A DNA stretch of 35,087 bases from a virus: UHGV virus genome UHGV-0145327, one strand, 5' to 3'. Positions 2,636 through 35,087 of this stretch are shown piece by piece. Within the stretch, counting starts at the first letter, position 1. Each line of letters begins with the position of its first letter. The notes below the pieces were generated by a model. It was not told the DNA's origin and ran no database searches. It saw only the letters and a program-made list of their open reading frames with translations. The position numbers and the translations under genes were made by a program.

Positions 2636-4477
2636 TTACTGCTGTGTTGCCTCAGTAGCAAACAGCGGTCTGATGGCATTCGCAGCGTTATTTATCGCTC
2701 TTTCATAGGCTGGTGTTCCTGCTTTGGTGTTTGCCAAACGAAGAAGCATATTCCTTGCTGCTTTGGACTCATACAAGCGCATCATTGCACCAAAACCAGC
2801 CTCAAGCCCCATTGATACGCCAAGGGTCGCAGTTGCGCCAATCGTCCTTATCCTGTTGGCTTGCGATTGCCCCGTCTGAGTTACTACATTTGCGGTGTCT
2901 GACCTTGCTGTTTGCTGTAGAACTTCATGAAGAGCATCAAGCTCTTTCATGTGCTTTCCAGAAAAAATAGTGTTGTAAATTTCACCGCCTGACTGAGATT
3001 TCAGCTTATTAACTTCAGTGATGAACTTGGCTGGAGAGTCACCGGCCTTTTCCGCTATTTTGCTGACATAAGCTGCACGCATAGCATCTTTCCCTTTATT
3101 ATCCAATGCGCTCCAGATTCGTTTTACGTCAGATGGTTTTCTGCTTAATACAACGGTATTTATAAGTTCAGGACTGGCTTCACTGCTTGCCTTGTTGAGC
3201 TTGTTGGCAATGTTTTTATTAAGCACCTTATTATAAACGTTTGCATAATCGGAATTTGCTTTAAGGTATTTTGCTGCGTCTGATGCACCGAGGTTTTTAG
3301 CAACTGCGTTACGAAGGTCTTTTGACATTGCATTCTCTACCATATTGGTAGCTGCTTTTGCCTGGTTGGGGAAGACCATAGCATCTCCCTGAACATTAGA
3401 TCTAAATGCTGTTCTGTGCTGACGCAAGAGATCAAACGTAACATCCAAATCAGTTGCAGGGTTTGCTAATTCTTCACGTAGGTTACGCAAGGATGTAAGC
3501 AGGCTTTGATTGGCAGACGTCCCAAGCCGTTCCTGTCTTGCGATCGCTGTATTCAGAGCATTCATGGTATTTGTGGTATCAACTGCGGCATTACCCATTT
3601 TATTGGTGACGTCATTGATAACAGCGCCAGCGGCATCCTTCCGCCCCCTTAACGTGGTGGTAAGAGATTTCACCACATCATCAGGGTTGTACTCACCAAA
3701 CCGGTCAAAATAATTACTTACCAGCTTACTACGCGTTGCATATTGCTCCGCTCGCTTTGAGCCTGTCCCGAGCAAAGCCCCCTCGGCATCCTGAGTTAGG
3801 CCGCGAGTGAAAGCATTTTTCGGCGGGATAACATCAGATGTCATTGGTGTCACACCCATCGATTCTGATGTGGCAATTTTCTTCGCCACTTCTGGCGCAA
3901 TATCACCTTTTATAGCCGTTATTCCACGCCCTATTCCCTTTGCTGCTGCGGAAAGAACACCCTGAGCGGCAAGGTTAACTCCGGCATTTTTAGCTGCATT
4001 TTGTGCGAAATCGCCTTTCTGATTTGCGGCCTCTGCCAGTGATCCAATAGCCATGCTTCCTGCCGTTCCAACTCCTGGAACTAAATACCCACCAATTGTT
4101 TCACCGGCTTGCGCGTAGGGGTCTGTCGGTCTGTCTACTGGACGATAAACATCATCCAAAACCTTGGGTCCACCAAGCCCCTGACTGATTGCATTAATCA
4201 GACTTGCGCCGCCCTGCAATACGTCAAATGGTATGTTTACCAGACCACGACCAGCCTGTTCTGCAATTTGCCCTGCACTTTGACCACCAGTGAGCCAATC
4301 GCCAGCTTGTTGCATCAATGATGGTTCTTCACGTGCTGGTTCATTGCTATCCTGGCTGACAGTTTGTTGCTGAACAGACTGTCCAGCAAAATACTCATCA
4401 ATGGCAGATCCAATATCTTCCGTGCTCGTACCATCAGGGAAGGTAAATGTCTTACCGTTTGCAGTTACTTTCATCAT
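2636..4477 (-). CDS. Internal virion ejection protein, P22 gp16-like (613 aa)
   Basis: Size and position (last gene of the late operon, after the gp20-like gene) match the P22 order 7-20-16; Gly/Ala-rich sequence typical of ejection proteins. Confidence 0.8.
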
Positions 4478-5880
4478 TCCACCGTAAATTGAATGCCTGA
4501 TTTTGAGGTATATGATCCAACCTGATTCCGTGGTTCTCCTGAAGGTGTCGAATCTTGCGCTGGTGCTGCGTCAGTATTCATTGACATATACCGCTTAACG
4601 GCACTCCCCAATGATTCACCTTTTTTAACATCCAACCCCAATATCTGACCGCCATTACGCGATTGTCCAGGGTTGCCATTCGCGCTCATCCACTCGGCTT
4701 TAAACTCATTAAACTGCGCGTTTCGTCGCTCAAGGTTTGCCATTGCATCAAGCCATCTTGCGACCGTCTCAGGGTTATCCATGTCAGTTGGTGCACCCTG
4801 ACGAACGATCTCAACGTCTTTATCCGTTGCGGGGCCGGGAGGTAGGAATTTAAGAACCTGACTGTTAACAAGGGCATTTTGGCGAATGCGCAAATCACGC
4901 AATGTCGTATCGCTTCCGGTAAGTTTTGCGAACATGTTCTGTGCGTTACCGAACAAACCTGTCGTTGGTTTTTCTGTTCTGAACTGTTGAGCAAGCGCAC
5001 TCATAGAATTGGCTGAGTTTGATGATGCTGTGGCATTGTTTACAGCCGTCTCGATGCCTTTTTCCATGTTTACTGACAGCTTAGGTGCTTCGCTAATCAA
5101 CTGCTGAGCCTTTTCCTGCGCTTGCTGCATCTTAAACCCGAACTCTTGCTGATCCAGAGCCAAGCGTTGTGCTGCGATATTGTGCCCAGTCATTGCTGAC
5201 TGATAGGAAAGGTTTTGCCCTCTCGCCTGAAGTGCTTCACCAGCCTGATTGCTGCGGATTGTCTCTGCCAGCCTGCCTCGGTCAATTTCACGACCAGCCA
5301 TCTTGTCCTGAACATTGAAGTAATCAATCGGACCAAGAGCAGCCATTCCAAGGTGATCAACAAACTCACCAAATCCTGAAGGATTCTGCTGATACATCTG
5401 AGCAACGTTATTAGGGTCAACACCGACGCGCGCCAGCTCATTGGCGTTGTTTTGCAGCCATGATTGCATTGCTTCTGGAGACGATGACGCAAGGCGTGCG
5501 CCAGCCGCTAAGGTGCCGATAGAATTACGCTGATCTTCATCAATGAATCCCATGCCTTTACGAACGGATTCAATCTGGTCTGGATATTGAGTAGCCAACT
5601 GACGCAAAGCTCCGCGATCACCAGACGCATAAGCATTAGCGTACGCCTGCTGAAATTCTTTCTGCCGCTGAGCCTGCTTTTCCTGCTGAAACACCCCTGC
5701 AATACCTGAAAGACCTTGCAAAGCAGTCAGCCCAACATTGTTAGCGCCTGAACGCTCAATATCATTGTTCTGCCTGATAAGCTGAAGCGTATTGCCGATG
5801 TCATTTACGCTCGGAGCGTTTGAGTTGACGCCGCCGATACCAGCTAACAATCCGCCATTTGATCCTTGCCAAGTAGCCAT
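4474..5880 (-). CDS. Internal virion ejection protein, P22 gp20-like (468 aa)
   Basis: Size and synteny with P22 gene 20 (about 470 aa); start codon overlaps the upstream gene. Confidence 0.8.
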
Positions 5881-5889
5881 GATTACCCC

Positions 5890-6582
5890 TTAAAACAACG
5901 AGCCAAGCAATCCGATACCAGCACCAATGCCAGCGCCCCAAGGTGTTGATGTTCCCAAAAGGCTGGCAAGACCTGCACCGGCAATCGCACCAGACGTTCC
6001 GCCACTAATTGCTGTCTGAAGGCCTGATGGTTTATTGGCGTTAGCAGCGGCAAGTGCTGCGCTTTGCTGCGCAATGCTGCTCATGTTGTTGGCATATGTC
6101 TGCCCGGCGTTTGCCTGACCTTGCAGTGCGCCAAGACCAACATTTGCCAGATTCTGGTAGTTGTTCATCTGACCAGATAGCCATTGCTGACCAAGCGTTG
6201 GTGCGATTGTTGCTAACTGATTACTGGTTGCGGTGGAACCCAATCCACCTGTTGCTTCCGCTGCAGCCAGACTCTGATAGCGAGCCTGACCTGCAAGGTC
6301 TTTATACTGCTGAGAGTTGTAATACTGGTTAAGTGCCTGACCTTGCCCCTCCAGAGACGATAAGTTTTCGAGGCTGCCGACATACTTATCAGCCAGAGGA
6401 GTAAACGGCTTCAGGTTATTCATGATGGTGTTGAACTGCTGATTTTGCAGGTCTGCGGCATACTTCTGGGCTTCTGCTGCATACTTTGCGCTTTTATCAG
6501 AGCTACCACCTTTCCCGCCTTTTTCAGGGCACCAAGGTTCCTCGCCGTGCAGTTTTCTGCCCAGCTTAAATGCATATAACAT
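5890..6582 (-). CDS. Internal virion ejection protein, P22 gp7-like (230 aa)
   Basis: Size and synteny with P22 gene 7 (about 229 aa); Gly/Ala-rich C-terminus. Confidence 0.8.
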   Translation of the reverse strand: MLYAFKLGRKLHGEEPWCPEKGGKGGSSDKSAKYAAEAQKYAADLQNQQFNTIMNNLKPFTPLADKYVGSLENLSSLEGQGQALNQYYNSQQYKDLAGQARYQSLAAAEATGGLGSTATSNQLATIAPTLGQQWLSGQMNNYQNLANVGLGALQGQANAGQTYANNMSSIAQQSAALAAANANKPSGLQTAISGGTSGAIAGAGLASLLGTSTPWGAGIGAGIGLLGSLF

Positions 6583-6584
6583 GG

Positions 6585-7040
6585 CTATCTCCCGTGATTC
6601 AGGAATTCGATTAGTTCTTCGCGTGTGGCGCTGTAAAACGTCACGTCATCCACGCCTTTGAAGTATTTCTTGATGGTTCCTACACGATTAAGGCCAATCA
6701 TTGCGCAATACATCTGACCGTGGCGGAATTTGCGTGCTGCGAACGATGTGACGCACTGAACGGTGGTGTTAGTCAGAATGTATCTCCAGAAAGACAGCCC
6801 GATTTCCTTGCTGAAGCCGCGAATCTCTGGCAGGTACATGGCGTGGCAATCAAAGGTCAGCGGCTGAATCTCCTGATAGTAAACAATTCCGCCGAACTGC
6901 CCGTGCACGTTCACCTCAAAGTAACGGCATTCAGGTTTGTAGTCATATCCATCACCGTTGTTGCTCCCGGCAATAATGTCAGGGTGATTTCCGACTGCTT
7001 CTATCAGGTCGATGTTTCGCGTTGGTTTGAATGTAATCAT
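6585..7040 (-). CDS. P22 gp14-like virion assembly protein (151 aa)
   Basis: Position between the tail needle and the gp7-like gene, as in P22-like genomes. Called from synteny only. Confidence 0.6.
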   Translation of the reverse strand: MITFKPTRNIDLIEAVGNHPDIIAGSNNGDGYDYKPECRYFEVNVHGQFGGIVYYQEIQPLTFDCHAMYLPEIRGFSKEIGLSFWRYILTNTTVQCVTSFAARKFRHGQMYCAMIGLNRVGTIKKYFKGVDDVTFYSATREELIEFLNHGR

Positions 7041-32330: not shown

Positions 32331-32487
32331 GAGGTCTTGCATACAATCCCGGCATTCTTCCGGCAGAAATGATTATTCGCCAACGCGTAAAGCCAATGCC
32401 ATCGAGAGAGGAATTGCTTAAGAGAAATTCTTTTCCATCAGTGAATCAAAACAAATATCTGAATGCGATGTGGCGGGGTGGGAAGAA

Positions 32488-33117
32488 ATGAAACAAATGT
32501 CACTAATTGAGATGGATGGATTTCTGAAAGGTAAATGCATCCCACGAGATTTAAAGGTTAACGAAACAAACGCTGAATATCTGGTGCGTAAGTTCGGTGA
32601 AGCGGAGGCCAAGATTTCGGCTCTGTCCGAAGACCAGCAGAGAGCGATTGAGTCAATTAAGCAGGCTGATGCGGCTGTTAAGTTGGCACACGAGAAGTTT
32701 TCGGCGCTGGCGGCGGAGAATGAACTGGCTCGTAAGGCAGTTCAGGCATTCTGCGATGTTGTTGGCGACAACACCGAGGTTATCGCTGAGGTGGTTGGGA
32801 GAGATGGCGTTCTGGTTATTTTGGAGGCCATGAAGGCAACAGGAAATATGCCTGCCACCGATGCTTTCCTGTCTGAAATACGTGCGGAGGCACGCAACGA
32901 GGGGATTAACTACACCGCAAGCCGCCTTGCTGCTGCGTTCAATCACGGATTTATCAATAAGTCTTTACGTGAAGTTTTCGACGTTACACGCATGATTCTG
33001 TCAGCGAAAGAAGAGTTGGCTAATGAACCGCATCCGATTGATGGCCTGTCTGGTGAATATGCGGAGAAATCCCTTGAAGAATGGGCGGAACAGATTCGCA
33101 AAGGAGTTCAGTCATGA
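32488..33117 (+). CDS. Hypothetical protein (about 209 aa from [11 protein letters not shown])
   Basis: ATG at 32488 overlaps the stop of an upstream small ORF (ATGA); the 32470 start in the track is less likely. Confidence 0.5.
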
Positions 33118-33347
33118 GCATCCGAACTGAACATGGATTTGGTCCTTCAACGGTCGAAGTCGAATGGCTTGATGATTGCCCTAAGTGCCAGCACGGCAAA
33201 GCCAAGGTAACAGGATGGTCGGTAACCAAAGATTCTTTGTGGGCGGGTGATGAGGCCGTTTGTTCCAAATGCGGTCACAAAGGTGAAATCGATGCTGATG
33301 GAGAGAATGCCTGGGTGGAATGGGACGAAATCGAGGAGGCGCAATGA
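33114..33347 (+). CDS. Small zinc-ribbon-like protein (77 aa)
   Basis: Two Cys pairs (CPKC ... CSKC); ATGA start overlap with the upstream gene. Confidence 0.55.
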   Translation: MSIRTEHGFGPSTVEVEWLDDCPKCQHGKAKVTGWSVTKDSLWAGDEAVCSKCGHKGEIDADGENAWVEWDEIEEAQ

Positions 33348-34009
33348 GCAACATCGACATCGACACACTGGCGCTGCGTGAGGCGGCAGAACGTGCAATT
33401 CCGGCAATGGAACGCCTGTTAATGTTGCCAGTTGATGATGATCTGATAAGTGAACAGGAACTTAAAGATTACGGTGTGGATATTGATGCGCTCAACGCCT
33501 TCAAATTTCTGGCCGGACCAGAAACCGTGCTGGCGCTTCTGGATGAACGGGAAAGAAACCAGCAATACATAAAACGCCGCGATCAGGAGAACGAGGATAT
33601 TGCGCTAACGGTAGGGAAACTGCTAATCGAAAACGGCCGGCTTGTTGCCGATACGCTACGCCACTTAGCTGATAACGAAATCGACTCTGATTATTTTGCT
33701 ATCACCTCAACGAATGAGAACGGTACTGAAATTGATCATGAGATGGCTATTACCGATTACGCACTGCAAGCTGCCGGAACTGTAGACGAATTGGTTGCGG
33801 CGCTGGAATCCGCAGAGAAGCGCATAGCAGAACTGGAAGCGCGGGAAATACTGCTCCCGGAACGTAGCAGTATGCTTCATCGAACAGATTTTCACGATGA
33901 TTACCAAACGGTAATGGCATACAAAGTTTCTGAAGTCATCGCTGCAATCCGCGCCGCTGGCATTCGCATCAAAGGAGGCGCAGGAGAACAAAACGATGAA
34001 AAACCGTAA
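33344..34009 (+). CDS. Ead/Ea22-like early-region protein (221 aa)
   Basis: N-terminus MSNIDIDTLALREAAERA resembles the conserved N-terminus of Ead/Ea22-like phage proteins (..ALREAAEKA..); ATGA overlap with the upstream gene. Confidence 0.6.
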   Translation: MSNIDIDTLALREAAERAIPAMERLLMLPVDDDLISEQELKDYGVDIDALNAFKFLAGPETVLALLDERERNQQYIKRRDQENEDIALTVGKLLIENGRLVADTLRHLADNEIDSDYFAITSTNENGTEIDHEMAITDYALQAAGTVDELVAALESAEKRIAELEAREILLPERSSMLHRTDFHDDYQTVMAYKVSEVIAAIRAAGIRIKGGAGEQNDEKP

Positions 34010-34189
34010 AGCAAAATTACTTCTTTTATCGCGTTCGACGGGGTACGAGAAGCTACCAATCAGCAATCACAAACGGGCGGTGATCGGCATGTTTGGTAGG
34101 GTGGTATTCGCATTTAACTATAAACCCACCGCGTCGCGGAACAGACGAGAGAAGGGGTACGCAGTGCGATGAAAAACCGTAAGGCAAAG
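33993..34189. repeat. Two copies of a roughly 21-bp direct repeat CGATGAAAAACCGTAARGCAAA, 174 bp apart, each starting a short ORF beginning MKNRKAK
   Basis: Copy 1 at 33993-34015 spans the 3' end of the Ead-like gene; copy 2 at 34167-34189. Confidence 0.5.
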
Positions 34190-34361
34190 ATGCTGATAGC
34201 AAAGCCGGGGCAGCGTATCCGTATCTCAAATCGGCTTGTTATTTACTATAGATATCTGGGTTTTAGGGGGTGTTCCTCTATTCGTTTTTACGGTGTCTGG
34301 CGAAACAGAAGCGCAGCACAAAACCGCTGGAAAAACCACTTTCGCACTAAAGGAGAGTGAT

Positions 34362-35087
34362 ATGACCACTATAACCGATAAGAAACAGTATCCAGGCGAG
34401 CAATATCTTAATGAGCTGATCACCAACATAGAGTTTGCTGCAAGGGCACCAGTTGAAGTCGTGAGAGCAATGGCAGCAGAGCTACAGAAGCGGCGCGAAG
34501 CTGATAGTGCCGAACCTGCAAGTAATCATGAAGAGTTGCCACTTGATTATCTCCAAGGTCAAAAAGATGGTCTTGAATGGGCTGCGCAGCTTGCAGAAGC
34601 AAATCACCCACAAACTGGCGACTGGCTTTACGATGACCCGCTGGAGCTGGCTAAAGCTATCAGAAAAGGTCCTGACATGCCCGAATTCGATGGACCAACT
34701 CCGATAACGCCGGAGGCCATTGAAAACGCAATTGAATATATCCGCAGTATCGCTTTTCACATCGATGAAGACGATTACCACGGCAAGCATATTGCGTATT
34801 TCATGCGACAAGCACTGGTCTGGCTGGAAGGGCATTCATGCAGCGACGACAGACAGGGTAAAGCCGAGAATCAACCAGTACGCGGCAACCAGGCTGCCGA
34901 ATCCAATCGCGGTAATGAGTGGACCGGCAATCCTGATATTGATAACGCCATCATCATGCTCGATCGCATAGATACGCTGGAAAGTTGCGATGATGACCGT
35001 ATTGAGGCGGTTAAGACTGTTTTGCGTAGACTGGCTGGCAACTATCCGGTAACTCCGGATGGTTGGATAAGCTGTAGTGAGCGAATG
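34362..35087 (+). CDS. Hypothetical early-region protein, 5' portion (gene continues past the right edge of the window)
   Basis: AAAGGAGAG Shine-Dalgarno then ATG at 34362; open reading frame (MTTITDKKQYPGEQYLNELITNIEFAARAPVEVVRAMAAELQKRREADSAEP...) runs to the window end without a stop, so it is absent from the ORF track. Confidence 0.55.
   Translation, partial: MTTITDKKQYPGEQYLNELITNIEFAARAPVEVVRAMAAELQKRREADSAEPASNHEELPLDYLQGQKDGLEWAAQLAEANHPQTGDWLYDDPLELAKAIRKGPDMPEFDGPTPITPEAIENAIEYIRSIAFHIDEDDYHGKHIAYFMRQALVWLEGHSCSDDRQGKAENQPVRGNQAAESNRGNEWTGNPDIDNAIIMLDRIDTLESCDDDRIEAVKTVLRRLAGNYPVTPDGWISCSERM

Follow-up and report, generated by a model that had tools for sequence, protein, structure and literature searches.

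Two tandem phrog_1380 paralogues, probably translationally coupled, begin with nearly the same 22 nucleotides in the early-left region of a P22-like prophage

The exo-xis region of phage lambda affects the lysis-lysogeny decision and has been described with full or partial gene duplications (PMC7093339, PMC8614690). The small ORFs of this region in lambda and Stx phages (orf60a, orf61, orf63, orf73, and ea8.5) lie by ea22 (PMC8614690, PMC7093339). Short conserved boundary sequences have been proposed to mediate the exchange of modules between lambdoid phages (in work cited by PMC2327257), and Red/RecT-type phage recombinases use short or diverged homologies (PMC2327257). Among catalogued protein families, phrog_1380 is a profile of 62 positions listed with “unknown function”, and the family has no Pfam or NCBIfam model.

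The window, which is the whole stretch of 35,087 nt that was analysed, was found to be a prophage of the P22-like type (Lederbergvirus), closely related to Kapi1, E212, and CUS-3. The locus described here contains two small ORFs, ORF1 and ORF2, and belongs to the early-left accessory region, which corresponds to exo-xis in lambda. The exo-xis ORFs and the ORF1/ORF2 pair occupy the same neighbourhood, and both are small early accessory genes located between the recombination genes and xis; the sequences, however, were unrelated, with no Pfam match to DUF1317, DUF1382, or zf-dskA_traR. ORF1 and ORF2 resembled phrog_1380 in length, in starting with MKNRKAK, and in having the QNR[WR]K block, and as a family nothing set them apart from it. 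What is added here to the PHROG entry, as far as that entry was seen, is a division into subtypes, tails that depend on position, and a coupling junction, all presented below. Compared with the lambdoid boundary sequences (cited in PMC2327257), the 22-mer is similar in that divergent segments are bordered by short patches of near identity (20-50 nt), where the mosaic joints fall. Unlike generic intergenic linkers, the patches here are the coding ends of one family and were found only there.

In the 99.8%-identical prophage of E. coli MS1657, the gene order was recT, a gp157-family gene, DUF5405, DUF2737, and ead/Ea22-like, followed by an unannotated gap of 352 nt that holds ORF1 and ORF2, and then by DUF551, DUF4752, ASCH, and torI/xis. 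RefSeq annotated an “ead/Ea22-like family protein” with the same stop as in the window and a “DUF551 domain-containing protein” at the matching place, and RefSeq/PGAP called neither ORF1 nor ORF2 between them (positions 3111-3462 of the MS1657 locus L001, corresponding to 34010-34361 of the window). In other records, one of the two small ORFs was labelled “hypothetical protein”. The features of the locus, all on the plus strand, are as follows.

32470-33117, plus strand: ORF of 215 aa; phrog_614 (E 4e-91), also phrog_368 (E 3.9e-42)
33081-33347, plus strand: ORF of 88 aa with zinc-ribbon-like motifs CPKC…CSKC; phrog_4446; weak rubredoxin-like Pfam match
33344-34009, plus strand: Ead/Ea22-like gene; PF13935 (E 1.6e-23), phrog_250
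33982-33986, plus strand: Shine-Dalgarno AGGAG, read from the sequence, 9 nt 5' of the ORF1 ATG
33994-34015, plus strand: repeat copy 1, CGATGAAAAACCGTAAAGCAAA; start of ORF1 and its codons 1-7 (MKNRKAK), with stops in both other frames (ATGA, CGTAA)
33996-34172, plus strand: ORF1, 58 aa; phrog_1380, subtype A1, first-position paralogue with …NRREKGYAVR tail
34128-34188, plus strand: inter-member junction module; ORF1 tail TASRNRREKGYAVR-stop, ATGA overlap, and repeat copy 2
34167-34188, plus strand: repeat copy 2, CGATGAAAAACCGTAAGGCAAA; start of ORF2 and its codons 1-7
34169-34360, plus strand: ORF2, 63 aa; phrog_1380, subtype B, terminal paralogue with …SAAQNRWKNHFRTKGE tail
34310-34360, plus strand: conserved 3' block of ORF2, SAAQNRWKNHFRTKGE-stop; 73-83% nucleotide identity between subtypes
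34362-35087, plus strand: 5' portion of a DUF551-type gene that runs past the window end; phrog_6847, phrog_60

The two copies of the repeat were 22 nt long and identical at 21 of the 22 positions, and their starts were 173 nt apart. The first-pass annotation, which had reported a direct repeat of 21 bp at a spacing of 174, was thus right about the repeat itself and needed correction in its length, its spacing, and its coordinates, which were off by one base. No third copy was found in the 35-kb window with up to 3 mismatches allowed, and 100 dinucleotide-preserving shuffles gave 0 matches to the 22-mer. The repeat had also been placed at the 3' end of the Ead-like gene, and the last codons of this gene (…N D E K P, with the TAA at 34007-34009) indeed lay inside copy 1. 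Likewise, each copy opened a short Arg/Lys-rich ORF as described (58 and 63 aa, with net charges of +13 and +16 and pI values of 11.6 and 11.8, respectively), and the TGA of ORF1 overlapped the ATG of ORF2 in an ATGA. The repeat was not unique to this genome, as a 20-mer of it was present in 120 viral contigs. Among 72 distinct family genes retrieved without codon bias, the ATG was followed by AAA (69/72), AAC (70/72), CGT (69/72), AAR, GCA or GCT (71/72), and AAR. The 22-mer is the invariant 5' end (MKNRKAK) of the phrog_1380 family.

Several other observations were made around the two ORFs. The 88-aa ORF ended in an ATGA overlap with the beginning of the Ead/Ea22-like gene, and phrog_368 was matched by both the 215-aa ORF and the Ead/Ea22-like gene. 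In the MS1657 prophage, otherwise near-identical, the stretch corresponding to 32470-33117 was arranged differently, with DUF5405, DUF2737, and a pseudogene, and this marks another mosaic joint just upstream. A terminator-like hairpin with a T-run (TAGGGGGTGTTCCTCTA TTCGTTTTTA) was located inside ORF2 at 34264-34280 on the plus strand, and the 2-kb region contained 6 terminator-like sites versus 2.1 expected. A promoter scan of the region gave no promoter-like sites.

Profile searches showed that both ORFs matched phrog_1380 along their entire length: residues 1-58 of ORF1 aligned to profile positions 1-60 of 62 (E 5.8e-23) and residues 1-63 of ORF2 to positions 1-62 of 62 (E 5.5e-13). In a direct BLASTP comparison, the first 10 residues alone aligned, and hhalign of the A-type alignment with the alignment of B to E types gave a probability of 98.4% and an E value of 7.6e-15 over 52 of 58 columns. 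The family motifs were the MKNRKAK N-terminus, a central [IV]SN[RH], a conserved Gly, and a C-terminal [ST]A[AS]QNR[WR]K, with a highly variable core. M1, R4, K5, the central Asn, and the C-terminal N-R were invariant in the family alignment; N3, A6, and the Ser before the central Asn were nearly so, and a smaller alignment added the Gly. The codon of this Ser was AGC in the A types and TCA in ORF2. A literature search for the peptide string gave no match, and a preprint on the Pas sRNA did not concern this region.

To about 200 loci collected by a DNA pattern and by a degenerate peptide pattern, pairwise pN/pS analysis was applied in all three frames. For six subtypes, pN/pS was 0.14-0.45 in frame versus 0.6-5.7 in the two other frames, with in-frame values of 0.41 for subtype A1 (ORF1) and 0.31 for subtype B (ORF2). 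Variable sites summed over the subtypes numbered ~67, 50, and 111 at codon positions 1, 2, and 3, so that position 3 was enriched. The length of the ORFs was kept at 58-65 aa despite the divergence of the core, and indels came in multiples of three; a few alleles were frameshifted or truncated. From the frame-specific pN/pS, the third-position variation, and the phrog_1380 matches, we conclude that ORF1 and ORF2 are, by these sequence signatures, real protein-coding genes under purifying selection of moderate strength. One of the readings offered at first, a pair of small genes, is thereby borne out, with homology along the length of the two proteins. ORF1 and ORF2 are very probably tandem, translationally coupled paralogues of phrog_1380, and the two 22-mers their homologous 5' ends.

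The phrog_1380-type family comprised 206 clusters at 90% identity and 51 representatives at 50% in a search of 1.84 billion proteins. All members from named organisms belonged to the Enterobacterales (Escherichia, Salmonella, Klebsiella, Citrobacter, Enterobacter, and Hafnia). In several genera, family members adjoined Ead_Ea22 and DUF551 genes with 4-nt overlaps, and in the exo-xis region of Stx prophages a D1-type member was the gene immediately downstream of Ead_Ea22. In two other loci (L205 and L207, ~4500-6600, with the E-type member P0082, which is named for Enterobacter hormaechei), a trio made up of the small basic ORF, Ead_Ea22, and DUF551 was located between the replication genes and ninB and not in the early-left operon; L206 had the small ORF and Ead_Ea22 without DUF551 or ninB. 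The occurrence of the trio between the replication genes and ninB in some prophages suggests that the cluster moves as a unit. The ORF1-ORF2 region was also present at 98-99% identity on E. coli plasmids of ~90 kb from ETEC and other strains (H35/H36 and H51/H52), which are presumably phage-plasmids, and 167 of the 1210 matching places were plasmid-borne. In E. coli BEN5202, an unrelated basic ORF of 58 aa (…AARRAAKRRRRTKR; L002 1586-1762) was inserted after the Ead-like gene and before ORF1, and it overlapped each of these neighbours in an ATGA. Many of the database proteins of 82-119 aa (P0043, P0023, P0053, and similar) were N-terminally extended or fused, and the extension …QLLQKAQRVTEQAEERVRSK resembled, as judged by eye, an out-of-frame reading of the 3' end of the upstream member. 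These entries appear to be gene-calling extensions or frameshift fusions and not distinct architectures.

The arrangement of stops and starts in the repeat was then compared between loci. Of the two alternative frames of ATGAAAAACCGTAA, one includes a TGA and the other a TAA, so that upstream genes of either frame end inside the 22-mer. When the longest upstream open frame was counted in each of 159 distinct contexts, 131 frames ended inside the 22-mer, 108 at the ATGA and 23 at the CGTAA. Both endings were present in the window: the Ead gene used the TAA in copy 1 as its stop, and ORF1 used the TGA in copy 2. The ends of the family members differed with position. The tail of terminal members, …ACTAAAGGAGAGTGA (TKGE-stop), carried the Shine-Dalgarno of the downstream DUF551 gene, which in the 3' block of ORF2 was AAGGAGAG at 34350-34357. 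The tail of first-position members, …AAGGGGTACGCAGTGCGATGA (KGYAVR-stop), preceded the next member, and in ORF1 it included an SD-like AAGGGG at 34152-34157. The …AVR tail was found in all 52 members with a following member and was absent from 133 of the 134 terminal members. As the type of tail follows the position, copy 2 belongs to a longer conserved inter-member junction. A related upstream motif, GAGA(G/A)CAAA(A/G)CG, was located ahead of first-position members in many loci.

These arrangements, with the ribosome-binding site of the next gene located in the 3' tail of each member, are consistent with a mechanism in which the 22-mer would serve as a frame-independent stop-start coupling junction. 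Constraint on the protein together with the overlapping signals may keep the 22-mer nearly identical at the DNA level. The overlap constraint by itself was insufficient to explain the conservation, because CGT was fixed in 69 of the 72 genes and the CGTAA stop was used by only ~14% of the upstream frames.

Conservation was concentrated at the two ends of the genes. In a codon alignment of subtype representatives, nucleotide identity over all subtypes was 88% in codons 1-8, 43% in the core, and 73% in the 3' block; the corresponding values were 91%, 46%, and 83% for the non-A types only and 83%, 28%, and 53% for the window pair (A1 versus B). Synonymous sites in the conserved blocks were nearly fixed across subtypes, AAA/AAG and GCA/GCT polymorphisms in the blocks were common to different subtypes, and AAAACCG was present in both the 5' and the 3' block. 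Loci with the ORF1 of the window joined to a C or D3 core were ~100% identical to it through ORF1 and the 22-mer, 20-50% identical from ~34196, and 90-95% identical again at 34316-34355, past which they diverged or stayed similar into the DUF551 gene. In loci with a B-type member only, similarity to the window began at ~34156-34176, at the 22-mer. The starts and ends of HSPs clustered at 33940-34019, 34160-34199, and 34300-34379, a clustering that is partly built in because the loci were collected for containing the family. The arrays observed were single members, A1-B, A1-C, A1-D3, A2-D1, A2-C, D1-C, D2-C, and A2-D1-C, and chimeric genes that combined a D core with an A tail were found as well. 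The conserved 5' and 3' blocks may provide short stretches of homology through which phage recombinases swap the variable cores, and exchange at the blocks would yield the A1-B, A1-C, A1-D3, A2-D1, A2-C, D-C, and A2-D1-C combinations.

The same data bear on another explanation, in which the 22-mer is mainly a recombination linker kept for the swapping of early-region modules and the ORFs are secondary. The coincidence of the ends of high-identity segments with the 22-mer and the 3' block, the joining of one A-type gene to B, C, or D cores, the chimeric genes, and the nearly fixed synonymous sites with polymorphisms common to subtypes all agree with it. Besides, a RecT-type recombinase is encoded upstream in the near-identical MS1657 prophage, and the linker concept is established for lambdoid phages (PMC2327257). 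On the other hand, the 20-mer started an ORF in 120 of the 120 viral contigs, nearly always a full-length phrog_1380 gene, MKNRKAK was invariant in the protein, and the genes were under purifying selection. A 22-mer between unrelated gene modules was not found in the 120 viral contigs and the fetched genomes. Every occurrence found started an ORF. The first-pass proposal of a recombination linker stood as far as the breakpoints at the 22-mer and the 3' block and the chimeric genes are concerned and fell as a general linker between gene cassettes. The invariance of MKNRKAK and the purifying selection imply that the conservation can be attributed to the function of the protein and to translation signals, recombination then being a consequence, and a primary role as a linker is possible but rather unlikely.

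A toxin-antitoxin-like or other obligate two-component pair would also account for two small genes with an ATGA overlap and for the finding that an A-type member was without a following member in just 1 of 53 cases. The partners, however, were homologous to each other, terminal-type members were most often alone, and no toxin or antitoxin model of PADLOC, Pfam, or NCBIfam was matched. Since the partners are paralogues and most terminal types stand alone, such a pair is improbable. Even less probable is the explanation that the ORFs are spurious and that the conserved blocks represent a non-coding RNA or a protein-binding DNA element. The uncalled ORFs in PGAP, the conservation of the ends and not of the core at the DNA level, and the AAAACCG in both blocks could be read in this way, but the pN/pS signal was specific to the reading frame, the indels kept the frame, and ORF length was conserved. 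The Rfam scan of 33000-35087 gave a sole match, at E 0.91 and outside the repeat and the ORFs, the folding of 33970-34380 was no better than that of shuffled sequences (z = -0.91), and promoter-like sites were absent. The frame-specific selection, together with the lack of a relevant Rfam match and the shuffle-like folding, disfavoured a non-coding element. Finally, a recent tandem duplication with the 22-mer as its scar, as had been suggested at first, fits the head-to-tail units of similar length (173-nt period) and of one family, yet it is excluded for practical purposes because the cores were only 28% identical in nucleotides, with 10 residues aligned by BLASTP and different codons for the central Ser, and because the A and B types were distinct lineages, each found alone or with other partners in many prophages. 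An ancient duplication that founded the pair of A type and terminal type is compatible with the data.

The proteins of the tandem phrog_1380 paralogues were small and extremely basic throughout the family (~7 kDa, pI 11.3-12.0, and net charge of +13 to +16). AlphaFold2 models built with an alignment of 39-40 sequences had the same predicted order of one helix, three strands, and one helix in both paralogues at moderate confidence. In the ORF1 model (pLDDT 67), the helices covered residues 4-15 and 46-57 and the strands residues 18-21, 26-30, and 36-41; in the ORF2 model (pLDDT 70), the helices covered residues 4-10 and 49-61 and the strands residues 16-20, 23-29, and 38-45. No fold match was found for the models, and Pfam, NCBIfam, PADLOC, and PDB sequence-profile searches gave no match for ORF1 or ORF2. 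An HNH-like (beta-beta-alpha-metal) reading of the QNRWKNH block was considered and rejected, because no conserved His or Asp was located upstream, the central motif was SNR in most subtypes, and the fold matches included no HNH structure. AP2 and integrase arm-type DNA-binding domains consist of a three-stranded sheet packed against a helix, and many have a basic tail at the N-terminus. The AAQNRWK segment might bear some likeness to the arginine-rich motif of lambda N.

Given how basic and how small these proteins are, nucleic-acid binding is the likeliest activity for them, and we tentatively suggest that they may bind nucleic acid as early accessory factors. A more specific and rather doubtful proposal is that they would be unrecognised hyperbasic nucleic-acid-binding regulators of the exo-xis/Ead-DUF551 cluster, in which the core swapped by recombination would set the target and the A-type member would act with the next member.

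The finding is real and ordinary: tandem paralogues of a catalogued but uncharacterised family of small phage proteins. The apparent anomaly of the direct repeat is cleared up, as the repeat is the common start of two paralogous genes and neither a scar nor a special site. In near-identical RefSeq genomes, the standard NCBI pipeline misses these genes in spite of their clear coding signatures, in a region that influences the lysis-lysogeny decision of Stx- and lambda-type phages. A protein of 7 kDa with a pI of ~11.6, for which no fold relative could be detected, is reasonable to take up in experiments. The family also provides a compact example in which the conserved ends of genes, with their stop-start and ribosome-binding signals, coincide with the mosaic joints of temperate phages.
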